Notes: a model not told the origin generated them from the sequence alone. 64,000 nucleotides of DNA from a virus (IMGVR_UViG_3300034101_003081:33386-97385); one strand, 5' to 3'. Numbered from the stretch's first letter, positions 8,571 through 63,690 are shown. Made by a program: numbers and translations.

Positions 8571-9437
8571 ATGACTCTCAGCAAGTTCTTCGATGACTTC
8601 TACAGGCCTCTCAAGTTGCGAGGCCGTTCAGAAAACACGACAAGGCTCTACGCCAATACGCTGAAGCAGTTCGGCAAGTACCTCGGCCGGGCCGCCACGA
8701 TCGAAGACGATCTCAATGACCTCGCAATCTCGCGATACCTCTCGCATCGAGCGAGAGAGCGAAGCGTGTTCACAGCGGAGAAGGAGCGGTCGCAGTTGCT
8801 GGCCCTCTGGAGGTGTGCGGCGGATCGGCGGCTCATCGACATGCGGCCGTGCGTGCCTCCGACACCGATCCCGATTCGCGTGCCAACGGCCTGGAGCATC
8901 GACCAACTCAAGGCCCTGCTCGCGACGGCCAAAGTGATGAAGGGCAAAGTCGGCGACGTACCGGCGCACGTCTGGTGGACGGCGCTCATTCAAGTTCTCT
9001 GGCAGAGCGCAGAGAGAATTGGCGCGATCATGTCCGTGATGAAAGAGGACTACACGCGGCCTATCGTTCTCGTCCGCGCAGAGTGCCGCAAGGGAGGCAA
9101 GCGGGACAAACTCTACACGTTCACTGACCCCGTCTGCGACCTGCTCGACGTCTTGAAGAAGTCTGGCAACGGCCCGCAACTCTTTGCGTGGCCGAGAGGA
9201 TACGAATACCTGTGGAACAGGTTTGGCAAGATCGTCAAGGCAGCGGGACTCGAAGGCGGGCGTCGCAGCAAGTTTCATCAACTGCGGCGAAGTGCGGCGA
9301 CGCACTTCGCTGCCCGTGGTGGCGATCCGACTGCCCTGCTAGATCACAGTTCGCCTCGCGTCACGAAGGCGTACCTCGATCCGCGATTTATCGACACGGG
9401 GCCGAAGCCGTGCGAAGTCTTGCCTGGACTTGACTAG
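8571..9437 (+). CDS. int: Tyrosine recombinase/integrase
   Basis: Catalytic set ERIG (R), K in RKGGK, FHQLRR (HxxR), LDHSS (H), TKAY (Y). N-terminal SAM-like domain (RSENTTRLY). AAGGAG RBS. Confidence 0.9.
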   Translation: MTLSKFFDDFYRPLKLRGRSENTTRLYANTLKQFGKYLGRAATIEDDLNDLAISRYLSHRARERSVFTAEKERSQLLALWRCAADRRLIDMRPCVPPTPIPIRVPTAWSIDQLKALLATAKVMKGKVGDVPAHVWWTALIQVLWQSAERIGAIMSVMKEDYTRPIVLVRAECRKGGKRDKLYTFTDPVCDLLDVLKKSGNGPQLFAWPRGYEYLWNRFGKIVKAAGLEGGRRSKFHQLRRSAATHFAARGGDPTALLDHSSPRVTKAYLDPRFIDTGPKPCEVLPGLD

Positions 9438-29564: not shown

Positions 29565-29615
29565 TGTTCAGAGTCTCCAGTCAGGGATGGGGCAGGGTGA
29601 GTGTGTCCGTACTTA

Positions 29616-31106
29616 TCACGACGCAGCGGTCTTGAGGGCCACGATCGGACCAGCCTTCGTGTTGTCGCCGCAGTCAGCGGTGACGCAATCGAAGCGGCTC
29701 GTCGCCACGATCAGGGTCTGATCGAGTTCCGCATAGCGGTCGGTCGAGGTCTTCAGCGTCAGGCCACGACGAGTCGCGTAGTACGAACTCATCGAGAGAT
29801 CGCCGAAGAGGAACTTCACGACACCGGGATCGGCGCCCACCGCGCTCGAAAGCGTGTGGACGAAGACCACCGGATAGCCGAGCAGACGCATCTCGGCGGA
29901 AGCCGCAAGGTTCGCAGCGGTGTTGCCGCCGGCGAGGCCCACGTTGTTGACCAGGCCGAGACGCTGCACACTGGCGGCGAACACGGCAGGATTCACGTAC
30001 CACTTCGCGTTGCCGCGAGCGTACAGCGGAAGCCGGCCAGCCGTGGCGATCAGATCGTCCACGTCGAGGGTCAGGGCCCCGGTGTTGCCCGTCGCAGCCG
30101 TCACGACGCCGCCCGTGTGGGCGCCGTCGTTGATCTTGGTGGCGACGCCAATCATGCCGCCATGATCACCGCTGCCATTGCCAACGAAGCCAACAACGTC
30201 GACCAACTCGGCCAGCGACCTGGCGATCTCGCCTGTGATGTAGTCCGCCAGATTCAGGACGGAGTCCTCAAGAACCTCGCTCGACATGCGGTTCGCGACC
30301 GCGACCTTCTTGCAGACGAGTTGCACACGATCCCAACTGGCGTCGGAATCCTGCACTTGGGTATTTTCCCCAATAAAATAAGCCTTCAGGCCGCCAGTCC
30401 GACGGGGGATCACGAGGGTGTCCGACTTCATCTGGAGGTTGCGGGCGTTCGCGGGGAACGCGCCGTACTCTTCGACGAGGACGATCACCTCATTGAGAAC
30501 CTCCTCGGCCGTAAAGATTCCGCCGGCCGAATTGACGCCCTCGCTCAGGGCACGGCTGTCGATCACGCCGTGGTCAGCACACCAGCGAGCGGCGTTCTGA
30601 TCCTTGAGCAGCGTGGCCTTGTAGAACTGACCGGCGCGGTACGCACGCTCTTCGGCGTTCTGGCCCTTGAAGTTCTTGAGACGACCGGCACCTGGCAGAT
30701 TGTGATAGATCGACACAGACCGGCCCTCCTTGGCCCTGGGGTAAGCGACCGCCGATTCAGTGGCGGGCGTAGACTTGTCGAGGACCGCCCGGAGTTCCAA
30801 CTCCTTGGCAGCAACGCCCTCGTAGAACTTGATCTTCTCGCGGAGTTTCTCAGCCCGCTCGCAGAGGCAGCGGAGTTTCTTCTCCTTCTCCTCGTCCTCC
30901 GGCATCGCGCCTTCGGCGTCCTCGACGCCCTCGGGCTTGAAGCCGTTCTCCTCGACGTCGTCCTCGTCCTCGTCCTCTTCGCCCTCAACGGGCGGGACAG
31001 TCTCGGAACGCTCGTCGGACGGCGCCTCGTCCTGAAGGGCGCCCATCTCAGCCAGCACGGCAGCGAGTTCGTCGAGGAGAGACTTGATCTTGGCGGACGA
31101 TTCCAT
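29616..31106 (-). CDS. Major capsid protein, HK97 fold, with N-terminal delta domain
   Basis: Coiled-coil/acidic N-terminus, DSRALSEG..SAGG, A.FIGE, S.EVLEDS, G.G.G, LLGYPV, LFGDLS. Confidence 0.95.
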   Translation of the reverse strand: MESSAKIKSLLDELAAVLAEMGALQDEAPSDERSETVPPVEGEEDEDEDDVEENGFKPEGVEDAEGAMPEDEEKEKKLRCLCERAEKLREKIKFYEGVAAKELELRAVLDKSTPATESAVAYPRAKEGRSVSIYHNLPGAGRLKNFKGQNAEERAYRAGQFYKATLLKDQNAARWCADHGVIDSRALSEGVNSAGGIFTAEEVLNEVIVLVEEYGAFPANARNLQMKSDTLVIPRRTGGLKAYFIGENTQVQDSDASWDRVQLVCKKVAVANRMSSEVLEDSVLNLADYITGEIARSLAELVDVVGFVGNGSGDHGGMIGVATKINDGAHTGGVVTAATGNTGALTLDVDDLIATAGRLPLYARGNAKWYVNPAVFAASVQRLGLVNNVGLAGGNTAANLAASAEMRLLGYPVVFVHTLSSAVGADPGVVKFLFGDLSMSSYYATRRGLTLKTSTDRYAELDQTLIVATSRFDCVTADCGDNTKAGPIVALKTAAS

Positions 31107-31211
31107 TCGTTCTGTTCCTTGGTCTCGTGGTGAGTTGTTCCTGCCGCGTGTAAACGACAGGATTCAACCTACGAGACAAAGAACAGAGACCCGAAGAGGC
31201 TCAGAGTTGTG

Positions 31212-44080: not shown

Positions 44081-47000
44081 GTCGAGAACTTTCCATTCGT
44101 GACCGCAGACAGAAGCCGCATGACGTCGTCGCCGTAGTCCTTCCCAGACCACAAGCCAGCCAGAGTCTCTGCGACGAACTCACGGTGGCTCGTCGCTGCG
44201 TAGCGAGAGACGCTCTCGGCGACCTTTCGGCCCTCGTCGCCGAATGAGAGAGCAGAAGAAGCCTCGTACGACTCTTCGTCGGCCAAGGCGTGATGGCGAT
44301 GAGCCAGTTCGTGAAGCAGCGGATTCGGCTGCGAGAGCCAGCCGCGTGCAGAGGCCAGCCGGAACGAGGCAACAGCCTCGTGGTTCAGAGATTCAGAAAC
44401 GTAGATTGAGTCCGTGTCGAGGTCGTACTCGGCAATAGCCCTGCATTCGGCTGCTGGCCGAAACACAACGCTCGGGACGTCGACCTCGCCGGACTCTCTC
44501 AGTTCTGCGGCGAGGTCTTCTGCTGCTTGGCTGCCCGCTCGACCCTGACCCTCTCCCTCATCGCCTCGATCGCCGCCGCGATCTCGTCCGCCTTCGCCCC
44601 CGACGGGAAGTCGAACCGCACGAGTTTCTCTTTTTGGCCTTGTTCGTCTGCCATCGTATTCATCCTTTCTGATTTCTTTCTTTTCGTTCAAATCCCAGAT
44701 CGCGAGTTGACTCGTCGACTCAGCCGAATCAATGGCGTCGTTGATGTCGTCAAACGGCTCCGACAGATCAAGGTACACCGCATCTTCTTCGGCATTGTAC
44801 CAGCCGCCGATGTGAAGTGCAGGCCTGTCTGCGAACTTAGACTTGTTCTCATCCAAGAACTTGGAGATCACCTGTCCTGTGACTTTCTGCCCAGACGGAA
44901 CAATGGTCTCTGACTCGGGAACGACAGACACCATGTAGCCAGACGTGGGACTCGACTCCGAAACAGGATGGATAGAGAAGCCCTTAGTCTTTTCGAGAGA
45001 CTTGATCGCCATGTCTGCGATTCGGTCAGACTTGGCGCTGCTGCTTTCTTTGCCGCTGCCGCCCCCTGTGCCGCCGCCTGTGTCGGGAGCAAGTTTTTCT
45101 CCAGCGCCGCACGAATTGTCGATCCCGCCGCCTACGCCCGTCGGGCAGAACGCCCGCTGTTGCTTGCCCTTCTTGGCGATGCGACCGCCAGTCTTGAGGG
45201 ACGAGTCGTCGCGGTGAGCAGAGACAGGGTACTCTTTGCCTCTGTTGTAGAGCCGGTCGCTGATCTTCTCGGGGAACGCTGGCTTGGCGAGCGACTCGAT
45301 CTTCGACGCCTGATCTTTCGACAGCGTCTTGCCGACAGGGACAATGCCAGCGCCGCTGTAGCCCATCTCCACGTAGAAGATGTCTTTGCCGGACGAGTCG
45401 CGAACGCTGATGCCGATCTTGTCGCCAGCAACTTTTGCCGACGACCGGCCAGGCTTGCCGCCGAGTTGACGCACCAAGTCCTTGATGCGACGCTCGGACG
45501 TGCCCATCTGGTACAGTTTCTTGGCGACGCGAGTCTGCTTTTTGTCGCCTTCGCCGCGACGAAAGCCGCGGACAGGATCGTCGCTTTCGCTGGCGCCGGC
45601 TCCTGTGCCACAGTCGCGAGACTCCGGCATGCTCAGTTTCTCTTCAGGAATGATCCACAGTTTGCAGATCGCGTTTGGAGAGATGATTCCCTTCACGACC
45701 TCGCACGATCCGCCCTCTTCGTAGTAGATGCAGTTCCGGCATGCGATGCCGCGAGACGCGAAGGGATTCTTCTCCATGTAGTGAGCGCCGCTCGGGCCCT
45801 GCTGCGGCCAGCGACCACTCTTCTTGACGATCTCTTCCTGGGCGTCGTACAGGGCCTGGTTCTGCGGCGAGAGGGCTCGCTTCTCTTGGATCGGCTTGAG
45901 TTGCGAGACCTTGATTCCAGCCTCTTCGCCTGTCTCTTCGTCGACGACGAGGGCTACTGGCTCGCCTGGCTGGACTTCGATCTTCTCGCCGGACTTGAGG
46001 TCAAGCGTGCCCTTCTCCATGACATGCTTGACGCGGCCAGTCTTGCCGTCGCCGTAAGAAACAAGCACGCCTTCTTCTTTCGGCTTCGACTGCTCGCCAT
46101 GCTCGGCAGGGTTCGGAGACTTGCCAGTCTTGACCTCCGGAAGACTCGGCACGCCTCCTTGGGCCGGCGGCGGCGGGCCGCCTGGTGCGGGGTCCATCAT
46201 CGGGTCAGGCTTCGGCTTGACTGCATCTTCGAGGGTCTGCATGTTCATGCCGACGAAGTGCTTGTCGCCGTTTTCGAGCGGCGCCATGTTCTCCAGCCGG
46301 CGGCAGTCGTTGATCGAAAAAATCCCGAGGTTCGTCATCGTGGAGTAGTAGCCAGCGCGAGAGTTGGAGTCCCCTCGCATCAGCCCGCGGACGTCGAACT
46401 CGGCAACGAACAAGTCGTCGTTGTAGATCAGCGACCGAGAGATCGCGCTCTCGATGCGACGCAGCCAAGGCACCAGCGTGTAGGTGACGAAGTCCTGGCC
46501 CTCGATCTCCGGGTTGCCGCCCGACTGGCCCTGCACGAGCCTGAGAGGCAAGCGATAGACCCTCGCGATCTCTTCAGACTGAAACCTTCGCGTGGACTCG
46601 AACTGCGACTGCTCGGCCGTGAAGCCGACAGGCTCGACCTTGAGTCCGTTGGTGAGGATCGCCGTCTTGTACGCACGATCGACGCCGCGATGGAGTCTCT
46701 CCCAATTGTCTCGCAGCCGCTCGGCGGCCTCGGGCGAGAGCGATGCGTCTGTCTGTAGCACCATGCCAGGCCGGGCAGAGTTCGCCCAGAACTTGGCAGC
46801 GTGAATCTCGCAGGCCCTCGCGAGAGCAATCGCCTCGCGGGCAACCTCGACCGGGACCATGCCCTTGATGCCGTCGGGCTCCGGCGTCCACCGGACGTGC
46901 ATGATCTGGTCTTGCGTGGACGGCTCCAGCCTGCCCGTTTCTGGATTCGTGTACATGTAGCGAAGGCGGCCGTTTTCAAGCCGCTCCACTTCCATGCGAG

Positions 47001-52588: not shown

Positions 52589-52746
52589 AGTGCTGTCCCT
52601 CCTTGGACGGCACTGATTTTACGACTCTTCTTGAGGTCACCCGAAGTTCTCGATCTTCTGCCAGCCAAAAACGCACGCCCGAGGAATCGAACCTCGCCAG
52701 TCAGATTTGGAGTCCAACTCGCCAGCCTTGGAACATTGGCGTGCAG

Positions 52747-53354: not shown

Positions 53355-53412
53355 GAAAGCACCTAACCACGCAATGCAGCGGTCGCGGGCCGCTGATCCT
53401 GCGTGTTCTGTG

Positions 53413-53667
53413 TCACCCAAGACGGCTCAACATGGCGTCGATGTGGTCGGCCATGAGTTCCATTTCCCTGCAATCGTCGTATGACGCCACCCGCTTTGCC
53501 GCCACACGGAGGGCGTTGGCCCCGCACTGCACTGCCCTCATCTCTTCTGCGGTGAACGACGAAGAATCAACAGGCTCGGAAAACGTAAGCCCGCAGCGAG
53601 GGCACGCGGCCGAAACGAATGGCGGTTCGCCGAGTATTTCATTAGACCGCTCATCAACGTCGCTCAT
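53413..53667 (-). CDS. Hypothetical protein
   Basis: 84 aa, GAGGGTG RBS, CPRCG; ends beside an attC-like site. Confidence 0.55.
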   Translation of the reverse strand: MSDVDERSNEILGEPPFVSAACPRCGLTFSEPVDSSSFTAEEMRAVQCGANALRVAAKRVASYDDCREMELMADHIDAMLSRLG

Positions 53668-53716
53668 TGAATCACCCTCCCTTTTTCGCGGATGCTGAAT
53701 GTCGCCCCTGCCACAC

Positions 53717-54043
53717 TCACGGGTCGTCGCGCCAGTCGCTCAGGTCGCAAAGCGGAAGGCGAATGCCGTACCCATTCTCTGCCGTCAGGTCTTCCGTCAC
53801 ACCGACGTCCCCGAACCTAGACACCATGACAAGTTTCACGGTGGCGCCAGCCGAAACGGGAATCTCCACTTCTTTCGTGTTGCGGAGGTGCCGCATGACC
53901 ACGTCACGCTTCAGTGTCGCGTACCTGTGCGGCCACGTTTCAGGCCTGTGTGGCATCCAGCCGCGAGACATGGCATGGTCTGCCCCAGCCAGAGCGAAGT
54001 GGTCTCGGTCGCCACCGTACTGCGATGTGGATGAATCACTCAT
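53717..54043 (-). CDS. Hypothetical protein
   Basis: VMVSRFGDVGVTEDL...GY..R; AGGAG RBS. Confidence 0.55.
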   Translation of the reverse strand: MSDSSTSQYGGDRDHFALAGADHAMSRGWMPHRPETWPHRYATLKRDVVMRHLRNTKEVEIPVSAGATVKLVMVSRFGDVGVTEDLTAENGYGIRLPLCDLSDWRDDP

Positions 54044-54074
54044 GCAATGCTCCTGATGTGTGTCTTTGCATGCG

Positions 54075-54446
54075 TCAGTCGAAGCCGCCAGAGTCGCAAG
54101 AACCGCTGTCGGCTGGCGGCTCGGGTAGCGGTGCCCAGTGTGTGATGCCAAATGAATCTACGTCGTCATCGTCCATATCGCAGAAACGCCACATGACGCC
54201 GTCGCGCGAAGCCATTTGAGCAAGTCGAATGTTTTCCGGAAAAGCCCTTGTGACAGCCAAGACGGTTGTATCCACTACTGGCAGCCGCTCGCCCACGGGT
54301 ATCCAGCGTCGCGCGTTCATGTCCTCGACCATCTCGTCAAGAAGTTCCCTCGAAATGACGGTCGCAGTGGCACCCTCGGGCCAGTGAACGGTCACGCGGC
54401 CGTCCTTATCGCGAGAGTACTCCACGTTGGGCACAAGGCCGATCAT
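54075..54446 (-). CDS. DUF551-like protein
   Basis: WIPVGERLP...ITHWAPLPEPP. Confidence 0.7.
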   Translation of the reverse strand: MIGLVPNVEYSRDKDGRVTVHWPEGATATVISRELLDEMVEDMNARRWIPVGERLPVVDTTVLAVTRAFPENIRLAQMASRDGVMWRFCDMDDDDVDSFGITHWAPLPEPPADSGSCDSGGFD

Positions 54447-54733
54447 CACGTCACCTCCGGCGGCTCTTTCGTCCAGACCTTCACGGGCAACTCCCCGATT
54501 CGTTTCGATGCGCCGCCGACCGTGAGGAACGCCCACACGAACAGCGTCGCCAGCCTCGCGGCCTGAAACACTGTCGCGTGCCGGCGAGCAACCATGAAAT
54601 GCGACCACCACAGCCAAGGCGTCGAAAGCACCTTCTTCCACTTCGGCTGTCTGCATAGCCTGACCATCTCGCGTGGCTCGCAATGCAGTCGCTTCCATTC
54701 GGAGTACAGCAACGAGACGTTGGGCTCGCCCAT
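54446..54733 (-). CDS. Hypothetical protein
   Basis: TGATG-coupled on both sides with GGAGGTG RBS. Confidence 0.55.
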   Translation of the reverse strand: MGEPNVSLLYSEWKRLHCEPREMVRLCRQPKWKKVLSTPWLWWSHFMVARRHATVFQAARLATLFVWAFLTVGGASKRIGELPVKVWTKEPPEVT

Positions 54734-55029
54734 CACTTCACCTCCGGCGGTGCGGGTAGCGGCATCCAATGTCGCGGCATCTCGTCTCCGTACTCGCTCG
54801 TCCAGAGGTTGTGGCCGTCTATCCGGTCCAACGTCGCCACGGTAATCATCCCGCCATTGCCGTCGCATCCGATGCAAGACGGCGTGCCGTTTTTGTCTAG
54901 GAACCGGAGGAACACCAGCACAGATTCGCCCGGCTCCGGCAACGCTTCCTCGACGGGAATCCACCGTCGCGCCCACTTGTGCGGCTTCGGTTCCATGGCG
55001 GCGATCTCCTGGTGCTTGAGGTGGCCCAT
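54733..55029 (-). CDS. DUF551-like protein
   Basis: WIPVEEALP...HWMPLPAPP. Confidence 0.7.
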   Translation of the reverse strand: MGHLKHQEIAAMEPKPHKWARRWIPVEEALPEPGESVLVFLRFLDKNGTPSCIGCDGNGGMITVATLDRIDGHNLWTSEYGDEMPRHWMPLPAPPEVK

Positions 55030-55502
55030 CACTTCATCTCCGGGGGTTCTGGCAGTTTCATCCAGTGGGTGATGCCTGGGTAAAGGTCGCTCTCTTGTGA
55101 CTCTCGCCATTCGCCGTTTCTGTATTCGCAGAGAACGTGTCCCTGCCACGGCTTTAGGCATTGGCCGCCGCCGTTCCACACCAATACTTCCTGATCCTCT
55201 TCCGGCAGCCGCTCGCCCACGGGAATCCAACGTCGTTCATTCCGTAGATGCTCGATCTCGTCTGCCGCGTGCGTGACGCAATAGTGCAGCAGCGAAGCCG
55301 AGTCGCCCGCCTGCGGCGACACTGCTGAGAACCCGACGCCGCGAAGCACTGTCACGATGTCCGTGATGTCTTCCCCGGCCCGCATCGTCTCGTCGTAGCC
55401 GCGACGCTCTTTCGCCAGGTCTGCCAGTTCGCACGCTGCTGCAATGGCGTCGTCGCCTCCGTTTCGGATTCGAGCGTCGAGTTCTTTCATGTAGCCGCTC
55501 AT
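55029..55502 (-). CDS. DUF551-like protein
   Basis: AADEIEHLR..WIPVGERLP...ITHWMKLPEPP. Confidence 0.7.
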   Translation of the reverse strand: MSGYMKELDARIRNGGDDAIAAACELADLAKERRGYDETMRAGEDITDIVTVLRGVGFSAVSPQAGDSASLLHYCVTHAADEIEHLRNERRWIPVGERLPEEDQEVLVWNGGGQCLKPWQGHVLCEYRNGEWRESQESDLYPGITHWMKLPEPPEMK

Positions 55503-55846
55503 CGAGAAACGTAGATGCTCGCCTTTGGGTACTTCTTGCAGGCCTCAAGATACTCGTGGCACCACTTCACGAATCCGTCAAAAGTTCCCCATCCGTTGCT
55601 GGGGTTAAAAGTCCGGTAGTGGTCTGGCCTGGCCTCCATGTCTGCCAGGCCAGCGGCCAGCGGCTCGACGATCTGCCTGGCCTCATTGATGCCGTGTTCG
55701 TCTGGGCGCCAGAGGCATTCGTAGATTCCAGCCTCCGAAGCCATCTCGTTCAGATTGTGGGTGATGTTGCCCGAGAAAACGACGTGAGACTCTGGATTGT
55801 CGTGACCAACATCGACTGGGAAGTACAGCGAAACATCAAGACTCAT
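55499..55846 (-). CDS. Conserved phage hypothetical protein
   Basis: NITHNL..MA..AGIY..LW.P...NP.NGWG. Confidence 0.65.
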   Translation of the reverse strand: MSLDVSLYFPVDVGHDNPESHVVFSGNITHNLNEMASEAGIYECLWRPDEHGINEARQIVEPLAAGLADMEARPDHYRTFNPSNGWGTFDGFVKWCHEYLEACKKYPKASIYVSR

Positions 55847-56102
55847 AGGCTTGGCCCATCCTGCTCAGCAGCCCCCGCAGTGTCTCTGGCACGGTGCCGA
55901 TGCCTTGCTTCTCGCACAATTCTGTGCAGAACACGATTGCCGCCCACTCTTCGTCGAGCAGCGTTCCGGACTGGTACAGTGGGGTGATCGTCGATCCGTG
56001 TGGCCTTTCTGCCGCTCTCTCTTCAGCCAACCCGCGAGAGAAGCAAAGGCTCCTGCCAAGTACCTGATGCTCGACGACATACGCTGTTGGCTCATTCATC
56101 AT
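55836..56102 (-). CDS. Hypothetical protein (EEREAI-module family, diverged)
   Basis: EP.AY...PLY...LDEEWAAI...TLRGLL.R. Confidence 0.55.
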   Translation of the reverse strand: MMNEPTAYVVEHQVLGRSLCFSRGLAEERAAERPHGSTITPLYQSGTLLDEEWAAIVFCTELCEKQGIGTVPETLRGLLSRMGQAYES

Positions 56103-56404
56103 GCCTCCTTCACGAACACGCCCTCCGGCGTGAGATAGCCACGCCGGTCTTTGATCGTCTCGTACGCTGACTCCAGGCTCCCGCGAATAGAGAGCCCAGA
56201 GAGTTGGGCATAGATAATCAGCGTCACCAGAACGTCACCAAGTCCGTCTACTTTCTCTGCGAGGTCGTTCTTGAGAGTAGCATCGGCGAGTTCCCCGAGT
56301 TCCGACATGGTCTTCATCAGTTGGGCCTGCGGCGTGCTGTTCGGCACGATCTTGCGGGCCGCCGCCCAGTCTTCGACAGCGAGAATCAGTTCATCAATAG
56401 TCAT
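56099..56404 (-). CDS. MazG-like nucleotide pyrophosphohydrolase
   Basis: Q..K..SELGELA...DGLGDVLVTL...AY.TIKDR.G....G.FVKE. Confidence 0.85.
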   Translation of the reverse strand: MTIDELILAVEDWAAARKIVPNSTPQAQLMKTMSELGELADATLKNDLAEKVDGLGDVLVTLIIYAQLSGLSIRGSLESAYETIKDRRGYLTPEGVFVKEA

Positions 56405-56573
56405 CGTCTTGCCTTTCTTTGGCTGAAGTAATCTGCTTCCGATGGTTGTGCTGCCGACCTCGCGAGCAGTATGGGCACGTCCCGCCAGGCCTGCACGTTC
56501 TGTCTACAGCAGCAGACTTGTGATACTGCCTGCGTTTTTCTTTTCCGTGCTGGATGGACTTGTCGAGGCTCAT
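56394..56573 (-). CDS. Small Cys-rich basic protein (59 aa, not in the ORF track)
   Basis: Manual translation MSLDKSIQHGKEKRRQY...DRTCRPGGTCPYC... Confidence 0.55.
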   Translation of the reverse strand: MSLDKSIQHGKEKRRQYHKSAAVDRTCRPGGTCPYCSRGRQHNHRKQITSAKERQDDDY

Positions 56574-56768
56574 GTCTTTATTGCGTGTCCAGACAAGGCA
56601 GCATGGCGATGATCTTCGTTGAGTGTCAAGCCGCTTTTTGACTGACGCGGCTCACTCACCACCCGCGTGTGGCCCGTTCGCCCCAGAACCACGCGATGCA
56701 GCGGACCCGCGATGCCGCTGCCGGTATGGTAACTCAGCGGTCGCGGGCCGCTGATCGCTGGCGTTCTC

Positions 56769-57062
56769 TCACTTACCCGACTCGTCATCTGCCGGTGGCG
56801 TGTACGGCACCAGTTCGATCTCGTTGAACGTGTCGATTTCCCGTACGTACCCCGCCGCCTCACCGAAGTACGCCCGCACCTTGTAGTGCAACTGCACGCC
56901 GCCGGGACACTCTTGGTACAGCCGCTCGATGATTTGCATGGCGGGAGTGCCTCGCTCGCGAGTAAAGAATCCCTTCTGCTTGCCAAAGCCTAGCGTCACC
57001 GAAATCGGCTGAACGAAGTCGCCAACCTTGAACTTGAAATGCTCGTACTGCGGACTTGCCAT
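56769..57062 (-). CDS. Cassette ORF, hypothetical (FKVGD SH3-like start)
   Basis: Fills the space between two attC-like sites; AAGGAGA RBS. Confidence 0.65.
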   Translation of the reverse strand: MASPQYEHFKFKVGDFVQPISVTLGFGKQKGFFTRERGTPAMQIIERLYQECPGGVQLHYKVRAYFGEAAGYVREIDTFNEIELVPYTPPADDESGK

Positions 57063-57161
57063 GTCGTCTCCTTACAAGAGAACCACGCGATGCAGCGGAC
57101 CCGCGATGCCGTCTGCCGGTATGGTAAGTCAGCGGTCGCGGGCCGCTGATCGCAAGCGTTC

Positions 57162-57545
57162 TCATGCTAGCCGCTCAATCAGTCCCCTGAGCGTGCAGGC
57201 GGCAGCGGCATCCATCGGTCCAGCATCCGCTGAAACGTCCTCTACGCCAACAAGGGAGTCGATGCCACGCTCAATCGCCTCCCGCTCCTCGTCGGTGAGC
57301 CGCAGTCTTGCAAGCCTCTCCTCTGCCTCTGTCAAGAGGCCGTGTAGCCACTGGAGGCTCCCTCGCTGCTGCTCAATCTCATCGACAGCCCACCGAACAA
57401 TGTCGCTCGCCTCAACTCGGTCGCCACTGTCCGGGTCGCCCAGCCCCATGCCACGCACGCCGTCGATCAGCGTGCGAAGGACCGAAAGCGTGTCGCCGTG
57501 AGAACCACGCGATGCAGCGGACATCTCATCTACCTCGTTTGTCAT
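57162..57545 (-). CDS. Cassette ORF starting inside an attC-like site (EEREAI family)
   Basis: MTNEVDEMSAASRGS leader; LTDEEREAIE. Confidence 0.65.
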   Translation of the reverse strand: MTNEVDEMSAASRGSHGDTLSVLRTLIDGVRGMGLGDPDSGDRVEASDIVRWAVDEIEQQRGSLQWLHGLLTEAEERLARLRLTDEEREAIERGIDSLVGVEDVSADAGPMDAAAACTLRGLIERLA

Positions 57546-57584
57546 GGTTGCTCCTGTGTTCGATGCCGCTGATCGCTGGTGTTC

Positions 57585-57926
57585 TCACTTCGTCCGCTCA
57601 AGCAGTGCGCGGAGCGTAGCCCTGCGGTCAGGGCGTGGCGTGCCGTCGTATTCGGTGTATGGGCCGTCGGGCAAAAACGGGATGGCAATCTCAATCGCCT
57701 CCCGCTCCTCGTCGGTGAGCGTGGGGGCAAAATACAACGGTGCGAGCGGCAGTGGTCGGTTGGTTTCGCCAAAAAGGCACTCTCTTGCGAGACTCATGGC
57801 CTCGTCCTTCTGGTGGTCCGCGAATGCCTCATAGACCGACAGATCGCCCGGCGGGCCGTCAGTCACCGCCCACGCCACCGGCTGAGAACCAGCCGATGCA
57901 ACAGACCGCTCATTTTCGTCGTTCAT
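57585..57926 (-). CDS. Cassette ORF starting inside an attC-like site (EEREAI family)
   Basis: MNDENERSVASAGS leader; AAGGAGG RBS inside the site. Confidence 0.65.
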   Translation of the reverse strand: MNDENERSVASAGSQPVAWAVTDGPPGDLSVYEAFADHQKDEAMSLARECLFGETNRPLPLAPLYFAPTLTDEEREAIEIAIPFLPDGPYTEYDGTPRPDRRATLRALLERTK

Positions 57927-57974
57927 AGTTGCCGCCTCCTTTGTTCGCGGCTGTTGATCGTTCACGTTCTGTGG

Positions 57975-58394
57975 CTAACCGTTCTCTGCGAAAGATTCCG
58001 CCGCCATAGCGTCCAGCATCCGTCTGCGTGTGGTCGCGTCCGAGACGGATGCCGCAATCTCCATCAAGGCCGCCGCCGTCTTTCGCAGTTCGACCAGTTC
58101 CGCATCTCGCTCGGCAACCTGCTTTTGCAGCCACGCCTCGCATGTACGCAAGGCGTCTCTCTCTTGAGCCACCTTCACCAACTGATGCTCTAGCAAGTCG
58201 CCAGCCGCAAGCAGCAGGCTTTCCTTTTTCCGCAGCCGCTCTATCTCTTGTGCAGCCTCGTCCATCATCTCTCCAGGCGTTGGGTAGCCGCGCTCGTCTC
58301 TCCATGCCGCTAGTTGCGAGGCCACGCTATTCGCCACAGAACCAGCGGATGCAAGAGACGGCTCGGCCGCGTCTCGCGTGTTGTCATCGCTCAT
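57975..58394 (-). CDS. Cassette ORF starting inside an attC-like site, coiled-coil
   Basis: MSDDNTRDAAEPSLASAGS leader; EAAQEIERLR. Confidence 0.65.
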   Translation of the reverse strand: MSDDNTRDAAEPSLASAGSVANSVASQLAAWRDERGYPTPGEMMDEAAQEIERLRKKESLLLAAGDLLEHQLVKVAQERDALRTCEAWLQKQVAERDAELVELRKTAAALMEIAASVSDATTRRRMLDAMAAESFAENG

Positions 58395-58421
58395 AGTTCG
58401 CCGCTCCTGATCCGTGTCGTT

Positions 58422-58589
58422 CTACCTCTCGCCACCACCACTTGCTTCTGCCTCCACTTGCGGGGCAGGCTCGGAATGCGTTGCCGACCGCCTGTACCCA
58501 GCCGTCGCCAGAGAGAACGCCAAGATCACAACGAACAGAACCCCAAAAGCGGCGTTGAAATCGTCATCCGGCGTTACTGGGCAGACCAT
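58422..58589 (-). CDS. Cassette ORF, small membrane protein
   Basis: Hydrophobic stretch AAFGVLFVVILAFSLA; GAGG RBS. Confidence 0.5.
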   Translation of the reverse strand: MVCPVTPDDDFNAAFGVLFVVILAFSLATAGYRRSATHSEPAPQVEAEASGGGER

Positions 58590-58663
58590 CGTTTTCCTCT
58601 CTTGTGAATCCGGTAGAACCACGCAATCCAGCGGACGGGCCGCTGATCGCTGGTGTTCTGTGG

Positions 58664-58858
58664 CTACTTGCCGTCCGATGGCGGGGCCGGGAGCGACATC
58701 CAGTGGGTGACGTTGCTGGTGATTCGGATGCTTCCTTCCCAAAACTCACCCTCCCAACGCACGGCGACGCGGCACTCGCGGCCATTCTTGTGCCAGACAA
58801 GGCACTGTACATCGTCGTCCGGAAGCCGCTCCGTCACCGGAATCCACTCCCCGCTCAT
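58664..58858 (-). CDS. Cassette ORF, DUF551-like
   Basis: MSGEWIPVTERLP...VTHWMSLPAPP. Confidence 0.7.
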   Translation of the reverse strand: MSGEWIPVTERLPDDDVQCLVWHKNGRECRVAVRWEGEFWEGSIRITSNVTHWMSLPAPPSDGK

Positions 58859-58950
58859 ATTCGTAATCCGTCGCTTTCCGTTGGTTTTCAAATACGTTCG
58901 GTTCGCCGCAGAACCACGCGATGCAGCGGACGAGCCGCTGATCGCTGGCG

Positions 58951-59232
58951 TTATCTGGAAATCGAAACCATGATTCGGCCATCCTTACTCGTGACCGTAC
59001 ATGACGCCCTAAGAGTCCGAATGCCGTCAAGGGTTTCGGCCTCATACTGAACGCCTTCGACTTGAAACGTCACGCGGTAGCCGCCCCAAATCCCGTCATA
59101 GGTTCCATCGGGGATGCGATCTACGCTTTCAATCCGCCTTAGTTTCCCAGCGAGTGTCGCCATTCCGGCCTCCAGATAACCAGCGGATGCAGGAGACGGC
59201 TCGGCACCGTCCTGCGTGTTATCGTCGCTCAT
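58951..59232 (-). CDS. Cassette ORF starting inside an attC-like site
   Basis: MSDDNTQDGAEPSPASAGY leader; the stop codon lies within the GTTA of the neighbouring site. Confidence 0.65.
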   Translation of the reverse strand: MSDDNTQDGAEPSPASAGYLEAGMATLAGKLRRIESVDRIPDGTYDGIWGGYRVTFQVEGVQYEAETLDGIRTLRASCTVTSKDGRIMVSISR

Positions 59233-59265
59233 AGTTCGCCGCTCCTGATCCTGCGTGTTCTGTGG

Positions 59266-59454
59266 CTACTTGCCGCTCAACTGCCTCGCCACAGAAATCT
59301 GCACTGACTGCCACCACGCAACCGAAACAGCGTCTCCGTGCAAGGACCGCGCATTTGCTTGTGGGCATGGAGGCAAGTCAGCAGGCCAGAGGCCGCGACG
59401 GCCGTTCGGCACAGAACCAGCCGATGCAACAGACCGCTCGTCAGTGTCGCTCAT
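59266..59454 (-). CDS. Cassette ORF starting inside an attC-like site
   Basis: MSDTDERSVASAGS leader. Confidence 0.5.
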   Translation of the reverse strand: MSDTDERSVASAGSVPNGRRGLWPADLPPCPQANARSLHGDAVSVAWWQSVQISVARQLSGK

Positions 59455-59494
59455 GTGCGCCGCCTCCTTTGTTCGCGGCTGTTGATCGTTCACG

Positions 59495-59767
59495 TTATGC
59501 TACAGTTGGCCCGGCTATCGTCGTTCCAGTTACGGCCGCGTCAATTACTACCCGCATCGCCTTTGCCAGCATCCAGCAGTGCCACCCGGCCCCTTCCTTT
59601 GTCTTGCAATCCGCCACCTTGAAATGCTGCGGCCCGATGGTCAGCCACGCGGAATGCGCGTCGGGCCAATCTTCGTCGATGGCCTTCGTCACCCGCGTGT
59701 ACCTCTCAGCCAAAGCCCAGTCTCGGGCGGTCGCTTCCGTTGGCAGTTCAGGCATCATCCAGTTCAT
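59495..59767 (-). CDS. Cassette ORF, hypothetical
   Basis: Spans from one site's R'' box to the neighbouring site's R' box. Confidence 0.6.
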   Translation of the reverse strand: MNWMMPELPTEATARDWALAERYTRVTKAIDEDWPDAHSAWLTIGPQHFKVADCKTKEGAGWHCWMLAKAMRVVIDAAVTGTTIAGPTVA

Positions 59768-59858
59768 GGCATAACCACGCGATGCAGCGGACCCGCGATG
59801 CCGTCTGCCGGAATGGTAAGTCAGCGGTCGCGGGCCGCTGATCGCAAGCGTTATGCCA

Positions 59859-60092
59859 CTACCGCAGCGCCGGTGTCTTTGGAGCCGCCAAGTCGCTCAC
59901 ATACAAGGCGTAATCGACGCCCTGCCGCGTGCCGACTCGGTTGATGAATCCCGTCAGGATGGTGTCGATTACATCCTGCGGCGGGCATTCCGTGACAGTG
60001 TGCATATGAGCATTTCGCTGGTAGTGGTCAGCGTCATTGCGGAAGTCTCGGGCGATGTCAGTGAGCATTTGCAGCAGTTCGATCTTCGTCAT
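59859..60092 (-). CDS. Cassette ORF, hypothetical
   Basis: AAGGAGA RBS; fills the cassette. Confidence 0.6.
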   Translation of the reverse strand: MTKIELLQMLTDIARDFRNDADHYQRNAHMHTVTECPPQDVIDTILTGFINRVGTRQGVDYALYVSDLAAPKTPALR

Positions 60093-60162
60093 GTCTGTCT
60101 CCTTCGTTGAAAAAGCATAACCACGCGATGCAGCGGACGAGCCGCTGATCGCTGGCGTTCTC

Positions 60163-60426
60163 TTATTTCTTGCTCGCCCGTTGGGCAGCCCTGCGGCACT
60201 TCGGACACTCGTATGTCACGCCGTCCGACCAGTAGCGGGAAAAAAACGCCACCATGTCTGGCGACATCGGCTTCTTCAACTTGCCGACTCCGTTCGTCAG
60301 CACCTCTGTCCGCTCGTAGCCGCACGGCCACCGATAGGTGACGTTGCTGCCGTCGCGAGCCACAACGCGGGCGCGGTGGCCGTACATCCCGCACTGCGTC
60401 AGCGGCTTTTTGATTGTGTTTGCCAT
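60163..60426 (-). CDS. Cassette ORF, Zn-ribbon-like protein
   Basis: C...GH, WPCG, CPKC. Leaderless start behind TGGACA-17-TACCAT. Confidence 0.55.
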   Translation of the reverse strand: MANTIKKPLTQCGMYGHRARVVARDGSNVTYRWPCGYERTEVLTNGVGKLKKPMSPDMVAFFSRYWSDGVTYECPKCRRAAQRASKK

Positions 60427-60466
60427 GCCCATATGGTATCCAGTCGGATACAGGCTGTCCAGCGGT

Positions 60467-60652
60467 TTAGTTTTTCTCGCCTTTCCCGTAGTTTTCCGCA
60501 TCCGACCGCCTGACGAAGTTCTGGCCGTCGATCCTGACGCCGGGCAGGCGGCCCTGTGAGATGAGCCGGTTGATGTAGGCCCGCGTGACGCCTGCCATCT
60601 TTGCGGCGGTGCCGACGCGAACGTATTCATCGGGGTCGATTTTTTTTGCCAT
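60467..60652 (-). CDS. Cassette ORF, HTH_17/excisionase-like DNA-binding protein
   Basis: TAAKMAGVTRAYINRLISQGRLPGVRIDG. Leaderless start behind TACAAT. Confidence 0.75.
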   Translation of the reverse strand: MAKKIDPDEYVRVGTAAKMAGVTRAYINRLISQGRLPGVRIDGQNFVRRSDAENYGKGEKN

Positions 60653-60731
60653 GCCAGCATTGTAGCCAATCGGATAGCGACGAGAGAGAACCAAGCGATG
60701 CAGCGGACAGAGCCGCTGATCGCAAGCGTTC

Positions 60732-61082
60732 TCACTTTGTCCGCTCAAGCAGTGCGCGGAGCGTAGCCCTGCGGTCAGGGCGTGGCGTCCCGTCGTATTC
60801 GGTGTATGGGCCGTCGGGCAGAAACGGGATGGCAATCTCAATCGCCCCCCGCTCCTCGGCGGTGAGCGTAGGCTGCGGGTTGCGGTAGAGCGGGACGACC
60901 TGCGCCATCCCGACAACCGCACCTTGGGCGTCCTGCCGATGGTACGCCAGCCACAGCGGCACGCCGTTCTTTCCGACCGCTGCCCAGGCTACAGGCACGC
61001 CGTTCCATCGCGATGCCGACCCGTGAGAACCAGCGGATGCAAGAGACGGCTCGGCCGCGTCATGCGTGTTGTCAGTGTTCAT
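60732..61082 (-). CDS. Cassette ORF starting inside an attC-like site (EEREAI family)
   Basis: MNTDNTHDAAEPSLASAGS leader; 3' end nearly identical to 57585-57720. Confidence 0.65.
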   Translation of the reverse strand: MNTDNTHDAAEPSLASAGSHGSASRWNGVPVAWAAVGKNGVPLWLAYHRQDAQGAVVGMAQVVPLYRNPQPTLTAEERGAIEIAIPFLPDGPYTEYDGTPRPDRRATLRALLERTK

Positions 61083-61110
61083 AGTTCGCCGCTCCTGATC
61101 CGTGTCGTTC

Positions 61111-61407
61111 TCAACCTATCCGTTCCAGCATGGCCCGCAACGCAACCGCCCGCTTTCCGTCCTCAACGTGGCCCATCTGCGTTGCGCCTTGCTCGTAGAT
61201 CATGGCCGCAACCTCAATCGCCTCCCGCTCCTCGTCGGTGAGCGTGCTATCCATCGTCACAGTCACGTTGCCGTCGCACACCGACAGCGTGGCGTCCTGA
61301 TCCGCGAGTCGGCGGATGGCCTCGCGCAGCCGTTCGATCTCGGCCCGCTGATCCTGCATGATCTGATCCGCCTGCTCCCATGACATGATGCCCGCATCAG
61401 GACTCAT
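61111..61407 (-). CDS. Hypothetical protein (EEREAI family)
   Basis: EIERLR...LTDEEREAIE...ALRAMLER. Confidence 0.6.
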   Translation of the reverse strand: MSPDAGIMSWEQADQIMQDQRAEIERLREAIRRLADQDATLSVCDGNVTVTMDSTLTDEEREAIEVAAMIYEQGATQMGHVEDGKRAVALRAMLERIG

Positions 61408-62786: not shown

Positions 62787-63110
62787 TCAAGCGGGTTTTG
62801 CTCCCTGCCGCCTCTCTAAGTATCTCGCCGCGTCTTCTCGCACATGCGGGTTTGATATCGTCCACGAAAGCAGGTGCCCGAAAACGAAGTGGCACGGCTC
62901 GCCGCACAGCGTGACAAGATTTCCTGGGTCAAGTTCCCGAGACGAGTCTTGGCTCACCGGGACAACGTGATGGACTTCTAGAGACTTGCCCCGCCCGCAG
63001 GCGATGCACGCTGGCTCCCTGGCGAGATGATCTCGACGAACGCGAGGCCACGAGCCTGACCTTGGAGAGCCGAACGACTCGACGGTGGCTCGCAGCCAGC
63101 GGAGGAGCAT
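62787..63110 (-). CDS. HNH endonuclease
   Basis: W..VR..HL...P.C..CG....LEVHH..P......ELD..NL.TLC...CH. Confidence 0.85.
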   Translation of the reverse strand: MLLRWLRATVESFGSPRSGSWPRVRRDHLAREPACIACGRGKSLEVHHVVPVSQDSSRELDPGNLVTLCGEPCHFVFGHLLSWTISNPHVREDAARYLERRQGAKPA

Positions 63111-63222
63111 CACTTCACCTGCCTCGCCCCCGCCACCCACCTCGGCGTATACGGGCAGTTGACGCATCGCCGTCCGCAGCAGCGGCCGTTTGCCATGAGC
63201 AAGGCGGCAGGGGTGGGGGTGG

Positions 63223-63690
63223 TCACAGCGTGGATGCCTCGCGGAACGCGACATCGACCTGGGCTTCGGTGAGCCCAAGAGCCGCAGCCATCTGCACGAG
63301 CCATGCGTGGGTTCGCTCAACGTGCGGGGCGTATTCCCATTCGACTCGCACGCTCTCCCGCGTCATAACGTCTTGGATGCCGTCGATGGCTGCATCGACC
63401 ATCGCGAGGCTGACGCCATGCGAGACGAGCCAGAGGCGAATCTGGCGGGCGGAAATGGAGTCGGGAATACTAGGCTCGTCTGGCAGCGGCTCATCGCCGG
63501 AATATGCGTATCCATCAGGCAGGGCAGCCAGGATGTCGGTTGAGTTTGGCCTGCCGCGCAGCGAATGAGTGACAAGCGGCGGCTGGCAGGTGCGAAAATC
63601 CTGCTCCGATGAAAACTCTTCTAGCGAGTAGCGACCGTCCATGATGGCGGTGACTACGGCAAATCGACTTTTGTGAGTAAATGTAATCAT
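63223..63690 (-). CDS. Tail-fibre-associated/chaperone-like protein
   Basis: ISARQIRLWL...EWEYA...ER.H..L..MA..LGLT..QVD..F.EA. Confidence 0.55.
   Translation of the reverse strand: MITFTHKSRFAVVTAIMDGRYSLEEFSSEQDFRTCQPPLVTHSLRGRPNSTDILAALPDGYAYSGDEPLPDEPSIPDSISARQIRLWLVSHGVSLAMVDAAIDGIQDVMTRESVRVEWEYAPHVERTHAWLVQMAAALGLTEAQVDVAFREASTL

Follow-up and report, generated by a model that had tools for sequence, protein, structure and literature searches.

Can gene cassettes of the integron type be harbored and exchanged by a bacteriophage that carries no integron integrase, and which enzyme would then move them? This question is raised by IMGVR_UViG_3300034101_003081:33386-97385, a stretch of 64,000 nucleotides (hereafter the window, to which all positions refer) that forms the final part of the 97,385-bp record of an uncultured freshwater virus in IMG/VR with a CheckV completeness of 99%. 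The virus is a tailed phage. A terminase large subunit (TerL; phrog_9, 392 bits) and a head maturation protease are encoded along with a tail-like protein, MazG, an HNH endonuclease and several DUF551 proteins, and no match to any deposited phage was found. An earlier note, generated by a model from the nucleotide sequence, had described positions 53362-61112 as an array of integron attC sites with signs of cassette mobility. The reading that we regard as probable is that the locus constitutes an integron cassette array without an integrase of its own, that an IntI of the host exchanges the cassettes at G/TT and that the attC sites have acquired an additional function as 5' leaders and start modules of the inverted cassette genes.

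Fourteen attC-Type Sites on One Strand

The 14 imperfect palindromes listed in the earlier note were recovered as an identical set by each of two motif searches, all of them as hairpins on the + strand. The pattern derived for the 5' arm gave 16 matches where 4.8 were expected and that for the 3' arm 15 matches where 1.2 were expected, and no shuffled sequence scored as high in either case. All 14 sites begin with AAC, end with GTT and are either 41-43 or 79-82 nt long. Inward from the AAC/GTT triplets follow unpaired spacers of 5 nt (left) and 6 nt (right), a stem of 9 bp formed by GATGCAGCGG and CCGCTGATC with a single bulged G, and finally a loop of either 5 or about 45 nt. Thirteen of them are clustered within 4.4 kb at 56,687-61,109, while site 1 lies alone at a distance of 3.3 kb, such that the notion of a single array spanning 53362-61112 holds true for the cluster and not for its outlying member. 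As it comprises 13 sites over 4.4 kb while the 97-kb record is devoid of intI, the cluster belongs to the attC clusters without integrase (CALINs). It is not a complete integron, in which intI, attI and a promoter adjoin the array, because intI is lacking. The sites are listed below, with bit scores from the covariance model of host attC sites that is described in the following section.

53365-53407 (+): site 1, 43 nt, solitary; 30.6 bits, E 1e-5
56687-56765 (+): site 2, 79 nt, type A with long non-coding inner stem, array border at low coordinates; 44 bits
57081-57160 (+): site 3, 80 nt, long type A; 45 bits
57503-57583 (+): site 4, 81 nt, type A, loop with AGGAG, ATG (57545) and leader of a bottom-strand gene; 37.6 bits
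57887-57968 (+): site 5, 82 nt, type B (L box compensated), loop with ATG (57926); 29.8 bits
58340-58421 (+): site 6, 82 nt, type C, ATG (58394) in the loop, ribosome-binding site within the L' arm; no match, E 0.1
58617-58657 (+): site 7, 41 nt, short; 30.5 bits
58912-58952 (+): site 8, 41 nt, short, AGAAC opposed to GTTAT in its own R box (mismatch); 35.9 bits
59178-59259 (+): site 9, 82 nt, type C, ATG (59232) in the loop; 24.3 bits
59415-59496 (+): site 10, 82 nt, type B, ATG (59454) in the loop; 31.5 bits
59773-59852 (+): site 11, 80 nt, long type A, R box self-matched, -31.3 kcal/mol as single-stranded DNA; 54.6 bits (the best score)
60119-60159 (+): site 12, 41 nt, short, same sequence as site 8; 36.2 bits
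60689-60730 (+): site 13, 42 nt, short; 38.3 bits
61028-61109 (+): site 14, 82 nt, type C, loop with ATG (61082), array border at high coordinates and upstream in terms of transcription; no match

In sites 8, 9, 10 and 12, ATAAC is opposed to GTTCT or AGAAC to GTTAT; these are the four internally mismatched sites of the earlier note.

Motif scans in IMG/VR and JGI metagenomes yielded, among the matches listed, at least 575 sites at no fewer than 215 loci, with size classes of 79-83 nt (n = 315), 41-43 nt (n = 208) and 47-50 nt (n = 50). Inside none of these loci is the orientation of the sites ever mixed. The stem is selected as a structure. It occurs in three variants, A, B and C, in which pairing is retained via changes on both sides; 95.8% of the L-box cells are paired as compared to 32-37% when the partner is shifted by one position, and compensatory changes are frequent (CG to GC 40 times, GC to AT 47 times). 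Folding of the sites as single-stranded DNA gives the expected hairpin with its bulge, which lies in the 5' arm of the top strand and is a G in 155 of 161 distinct sites, corresponding to a C on the bottom strand.

Relationship to the attC Sites of Planctomycetota Integrons

Two large metagenome-assembled genomes (MAGs) of Planctomycetota, G001 and G003, encode integron integrases (455-485 bits against TIGR02249, cut-off 265) that are directly adjoined by arrays of sites pointing away from intI. From 70 distinct attC sites adjoining intI in these two MAGs and without any phage site, a lineage-specific covariance model was built. When applied to the whole 97-kb phage genome, it identified 12 of the 14 sites (24-55 bits; E from 2e-12 to 7e-4), each of them on the + strand, and nothing beyond these 12; in local mode, eight of the window sites were found (E 5e-8 to 3e-5). 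The sedentary chromosomal integrons of G001 and G003 share with the phage array identical L boxes and hence the stem, the bulge, the 5/6-nt spacer, the inner stem ACCCGC...GCGGG, which is retained in the long type A sites of the phage, and the homogeneity of sites within each array. Unlike the phage array, they possess intI, canonical R boxes (GnCTAAC/GTTAGGC), sites of 50-53 nt, larger cassettes and genes that mostly reside on the top strand (24 vs. 5). The phage sites are integron-type attC sites of the same sequence family as the attC sites of Planctomycetota chromosomal integrons, and the assignment made in the earlier note is thus borne out by homology to sites next to bona fide intI genes. 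Since direction is defined by the position of intI in the host arrays, the + strand of the phage corresponds to the attC top strand.

The kinship to attC provides a handle on the host of the phage. L boxes of the GATGCAGCGG/CCGCTGATC type are also present in attC-like sites of MAGs labelled as Phycisphaerales, Rhodothermales, Latescibacterota and Pseudomonadales (L172, L183, L166, L129, L170 and L147); this type is widespread in environmental integrons and therefore assigns no host by itself. A loose-pattern scan of genome contigs mostly returned chance matches, with real sites stemming from Planctomycetota plus few others. Assignment of the host via TerL was rejected, as the Planctomycetota homologues are only 28-41% identical and Planctomycetota was the sole phylum searched.

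End Pairing and Cassette Junctions

The most specific claim of the earlier note, namely that the bases following each GTT match the R'' of the next site, was examined by summing contiguous matches between the post-GTT bases of site n and the complement of the pre-AAC bases of site n+1. In the window this sum is 59, as compared to a mean of 23 (standard deviation 5.7) for permutations, none of which reached 59 in 100,000 trials, and as compared to 29, i.e., chance level, when sites are instead paired with their own flanks. If the GTT is included, matches extend over 6-10 nt in all 12 units of the array, in agreement with the 6-7 nt or more given before, and both cases described as 10 of 10 are correct. 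The same pattern was seen in 292 non-redundant cassettes of other contigs, where the mean run amounts to 4.4 for the next site and to 2.0 for both own flank and random partners, and where runs of at least 4 are found in 75% of next-site comparisons vs. 17% each of own-site and random comparisons.

To map the junctions, site pairs from different contigs were compared for position-wise identity above background. With a common right flank and differing left flanks (216 combinations, the pair counts not being phylogenetically independent), the ten bases that follow GTT show an excess linkage of 0.56-0.98 and the six bases that precede it one of 0.00-0.12. With a common left flank and differing right flanks (176 combinations, to which the same caveat applies), linkage extends into the hairpin and amounts to 0.37-0.81. 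It follows from this asymmetry that the hairpin goes with the gene on its AAC side and that the joint is located at GTT; the break in homology falls inside the triplet. The polarity of the junctions agrees with that derived independently from the orientation of host attC sites relative to intI. In integrons, a cassette comprises TT, the gene and its attC up to the G.

A search for insertions or deletions of cassettes returned none at first; after metagenome loci had been added, one clean and one doubtful case emerged. Locus L342 contains four cassettes more than locus L366 (373, 238, 346 and 358 nt; 1,315 nt in total), with flanks that are 99-100% identical over 100 nt and with both junctions exactly after GTT. 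Furthermore, 146 cassette proteins fall into 106 families, and families that are shared have differing neighbors. Gene order among relatives, the comparison of which had been proposed in the earlier note, is not invariant, and the switches are found at GTT. This comparative evidence demonstrates that the cassettes move.

Inverted Cassette Genes and Translation Starts in attC Loops

The array contains the following open reading frames (ORFs; aa, amino acids).

56769-57062 (-): ORF of 97 aa, no family
57162-57545 (-): ORF of 127 aa, start within site 4
57585-57926 (-): ORF of 113 aa, start within site 5, paralogue of 60732-61082
57975-58394 (-): ORF of 139 aa, start within site 6
58422-58589 (-): ORF of 55 aa, small hydrophobic protein as read from the sequence
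58664-58858 (-): ORF of 64 aa, DUF551 (Pfam 43.7 bits, cut-off 22)
58951-59232 (-): ORF of 93 aa, start within site 9, its TAA stop being the TTA of the GTTA of site 8
59266-59454 (-): ORF of 62 aa, start within site 10
59495-59767 (-): cassette ORF of 90 aa
59859-60092 (-): cassette ORF of 77 aa
60163-60652 (-): two-gene cassette, ORF of 87 aa at 60163-60426 and HTH_17 protein of 61 aa at 60467-60652 (27.6 bits)
60732-61082 (-): ORF of 116 aa, start within site 14, paralogue of 57585-57926

The cargo named in the earlier note, DUF551 and HTH, is recognized by Pfam at 58664-58858 (-) and 60467-60652 (-), respectively. As the stop codon of 58951-59232 is provided by the preceding GTTA, the open frame fills the entire cassette. 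Strands were called by a frame test based on GC content at third minus second codon positions (GC3 minus GC2), which was correct for 8 of 8 genes of known strand; longest-ORF calling is unreliable in the GC-rich DNA studied here. By this test, 71 viral cassette genes lie on the bottom strand and nine on the top strand, whereas host cassettes feature five and 24, respectively. The placement of the genes on the attC bottom strand, already pointed out in the earlier note, is therefore opposite to that in host arrays.

The loops of six window sites (4, 5, 6, 9, 10 and 14) accommodate AGGAG together with the ATG and the beginning of the coding sequence, and translation of the R''-L'' arm yields a leader whose last residues read ...AS.GS. 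Of 116 long sites in the data set, 95 (82%) possess a loop ATG from which a frame of 40 codons or more extends. In type C sites, AGGAG is the L' arm itself and hence paired in the mRNA if the latter is folded.

The paralogous cassettes at 57585-57926 (-) and 60732-61082 (-) share 54% identity and almost identical last ~50 residues while their attC sites are of types B and C, respectively. This pair shows duplication or recombination within cassettes, and the near-identical 3' halves imply that homologous recombination acts here. In the only two-gene cassette, each gene is preceded by a similar element of ~35 nt with a small palindrome and ...GGCATGGCAAA at the start (60430-60470 and 60655-60690, -), and a sigma-70-like match (TGGACA, 17 nt, TACCAT) is present at 60461-60433; these elements may represent an internal promoter or operator of a self-regulated pair.

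Proposed Mechanism of Cassette Exchange

In the mechanism that we propose, each site closes one cassette, which begins with the TT of one GTT, extends to the G of the following GTT and consists of one small gene (two in a single case) on the attC bottom strand followed by its own attC on the top strand. Excision and insertion would proceed by strand exchange at G/TT of folded sites, which would explain why the post-GTT bases pair with the next AAC flank and not with the own site and why related phages differ by whole cassettes. Because the phage lacks an integron integrase, exchange would most likely be performed by the IntI of the infected or lysogenised host. We infer such a role of host IntI from the kinship of the sites to attC sites adjoining intI, taken together with the published use of phage attC sites by IntI1 (Qi et al., 2023; PMC9892861). 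The array is presumably still active and may, as suggested in the earlier note, be a place where new cassettes arise. Given that the genes are inverted, attC lies in the 5' part of the mRNA of each cistron. Most long sites have been co-opted as a start module, with the loop providing ribosome-binding site, ATG and ~8 codons and the R''-L'' arm providing the shared leader, and the hairpins may exert a regulatory role in the RNA.

A number of observations weigh against this reading. With regard to the enzyme, no match to TIGR02249 was obtained in the phage or in 24 array-bearing virus records, 11 of them at least 90% complete, nor did tblastn with host IntI find any homologue in 239 loci totalling 1.7 Mb, in accordance with the earlier note, in which no intI was visible. 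With regard to the sites, the R-box consensus in the phage is nSAKAAC/GTTMTSn and not RYYYAAC/GTTRRRY, such that only the triplets agree; TAAC/GTTA is present in ~15% of the phage sites. Sites 6 and 14, both of type C, are missed by the host-attC model, and the short sites of 41-43 nt are below the length typical of attC (~55-140 nt). The base that is usually extrahelical on the attC bottom strand is a G, whereas the bulge is a C in the phage and likewise in the host sites adjoining intI. With regard to the host, the phage cassette proteins have no match in ~150 kb of sampled host arrays, and phage-type sites were not found among the 401 Planctomycetota genomes searched. Finally, the hairpin is only partly linked to the flank on its left, and for short sites no linkage to either side could be measured, which indicates that some exchange on the AAC side, gene conversion or homologous recombination takes place as well.

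Alternative Explanations

We consider it unlikely that the sites, albeit derived from attC, are served by a phage-encoded enzyme, be it an unrecognized protein or the one tyrosine recombinase of the phage, which had not been mentioned in the earlier note, and that the array thus forms an autonomous system.

8571-9437 (+): tyrosine recombinase, the only one of the phage, 288 aa, Xer/phage-integrase type, not IntI

A single PF00589 recombinase is encoded in each of 18 of the 24 array-bearing virus records, homologues of the 8571-9437 protein (28-41% identity) are located 1-12 kb from attC-type sites in 10 related loci, and the deviant R box (AGAAC/GTTCT) could mean a different specificity. On the other hand, the gene resides 44 kb from the array, its relatives occur in many but not all array-bearing phages without consistent adjacency to the arrays, and no tyrosine recombinase at all is present in three of the 11 records that are at least 90% complete. 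The protein scores as an ordinary phage integrase (phrog_1 integrase, E 1e-24), remains far below the cut-offs of the XerA/XerD models (35-53 bits) and does not match TIGR02249; the simplest reading is that of a lysogeny integrase, which suggests a temperate lifestyle. Other candidate enzymes, i.e., a Y1 transposase (PF01797) or a serine recombinase, were also not found.

Rather improbable in our view is a second alternative, according to which the hairpins mainly act in RNA or expression, either as 5' leaders with a sequestered ribosome-binding site or as processing or stabilizing elements between cistrons, while shuffling is brought about by short homology or microhomology between co-infecting phages. 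Such a role is compatible with the position of a hairpin at the 5' end (mRNA sense) of every cistron, with the ribosome-binding site and ATG contained in most of the long ones and with AGGAG in the stem of type C. The short sites unlinked to either flank, the incomplete linkage on the left and the paralogous cassettes, which testify to homologous recombination, likewise fit. However, homologous recombination gives no reason why post-GTT flanks should pair with the next pre-AAC flank, why arms should covary within a site and flanks across a gene with a switch exactly at the triplets, or why breakpoints should be sharp and asymmetric. Moreover, exchange is seen between site types that have only few bases in common, the sites are homologous to DNA recombination sites adjoining intI, and they are neither intrinsic terminators nor members of an Rfam family.

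Very improbable, lastly, is an inert relic, i.e., a fragment of a host integron that was acquired a single time through illegitimate recombination and is now only inherited vertically, as although an integrase is absent in cis and passive capture has been proposed for some phage CALINs (PMC9892861), the cargo is of phage type (DUF551, HTH) and inverted relative to host arrays, the sites are present at no fewer than 215 loci, the 146 cassette proteins represent 106 families whose neighbors vary, near-identical contigs differ by a whole-cassette insertion or deletion, end pairing is retained in 75% of the cassettes and compensatory change maintains the stems.

Several further candidates were tried and rejected. 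A search for intrinsic terminators gave 9 matches vs. 6.6 +/- 2.6 expected, none of them at the sites on the coding (-) strand; a promoter scan revealed no enrichment, and an Rfam scan of 52-64 kb found no family at the sites. Hairpins of the REP/RAYT or IS200 type were dismissed since PF01797 is absent and all sites in each locus face the same direction. Units with terminal inverted repeats arranged back to back, with their borders in the loop, were rejected because the arms covary within a site and not between neighbors. An enrichment of sites at contig ends was dropped, a rough count not being above expectation.

Comparison With Known Systems and Implications

Clusters of attC sites in phages are already known: Qi, Rajabal, Ghaly, Tetu and Gillings (2023; PMC9892861) detected 17 phage CALINs with at least two sites each among 10,705 NCBI phage genomes. 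Five of six phage attC sites tested were recombined by IntI1, with junctions at G/TTRRRY, and in the best of the published phage CALINs the cassettes are oriented as in bacteria (PMC9892861). The present array resembles these CALINs (PMC9892861) in being an attC array in a phage without intI and differs from them in scale (13 sites, at least 215 related loci), in its kinship to a named family of host attC sites, in the systematic inversion of its genes and in the translation starts within attC loops. The occurrence of attC clusters in a phage is therefore less unprecedented than had been assumed in the earlier note. In the literature searched, no description of systematic gene inversion or of translation starts in attC loops was found.

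The conserved intergenic linkers of other phages invite a further comparison. The promoter-stem-loop cassettes of T4-type phages and the start-associated sequences of cluster K mycobacteriophages have been proposed to drive modular gene shuffling. They resemble the sites described here as repeats at the 5' end of many small early genes, in carrying translation signals and in their association with mosaicism. They act by homology or in expression, and to our knowledge neither chained end pairing nor crossover at AAC/GTT nor kinship to attC applies to them.

A broader proposal, which we advance tentatively and consider slightly more doubtful than secure, is that a large group of freshwater phages maintains a cassette pool of its own apart from that of the host, in which genes are inverted and attC serves as 5' leader and often as ribosome-binding site, start and N-terminal tag, and, encoding no integrase, exploits the IntI of whichever host is infected to gain, lose and reorder accessory genes. 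If true, integron recombination would be a general engine of mosaicism in phage early regions, and selection would act on attC in three capacities at once, namely as a site of DNA recombination, as a structure in the mRNA and as coding sequence. The inverted arrangement, in which genes start in the loops, is a compact example of these three functions in one sequence and renders each cassette a self-contained expression unit that does not need a promoter beside attI. If the host integrase drives the exchange, phage accessory genes, which probably serve host takeover or counter-defence, would be shuffled by an enzyme of the host. In known systems, integron activity is induced by stress, and under the same premise it would feed phage evolution. 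Integrons are regarded as bacterial devices, and the one survey of phages revealed few attC clusters, all of them small. Here, a whole group of uncultured phages bears long arrays with very diverse, phage-specific cargo.

Surroundings of the Array

The array region is situated between genes for a MazG-like pyrophosphatase (56099-56404, -) and an HNH endonuclease (62787-63320, -). Three DUF551 genes are located at 54075-54449, 55029-55502 and 58664-58858. The solitary site 1 lies just upstream (mRNA sense) of a gene for a small glycine-rich, membrane-like protein. The low-coordinate border of the array is marked by a copy of the 15-bp motif GCGTGTCCAGACAAG at 56583-56597 (+), which lies within the 110 nt that separate site 2 from the adjacent gene.

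Beyond the opposite end, a decayed right half of a site, consisting of CCGCTGATC, 6 nt and GAT instead of GTT, is found at 61345-61362 (+) within the ORF at 61111-61407 (-). A motif of the LTDEEREAIE type that occurs in array cassettes is also present in the two ORFs past site 14. These two ORFs may be former cassettes that were fixed through loss of attC, and the run of small genes without hairpins at 53.4-56.6 kb may have arisen likewise.

At 44968-46758, 29601-31133 and 1845-2777, the longest + strand ORFs of the respective regions exhibit GC1 > GC3 and are probably antisense shadows of minus-strand genes, which means that naive longest-ORF calls mislead in this phage genome. Finally, a tRNA-Trp (CCA) was predicted by ARAGORN at 52672-52744 (-), for which Rfam gives only a weak tRNA-Sec-like match (33.8 bits).

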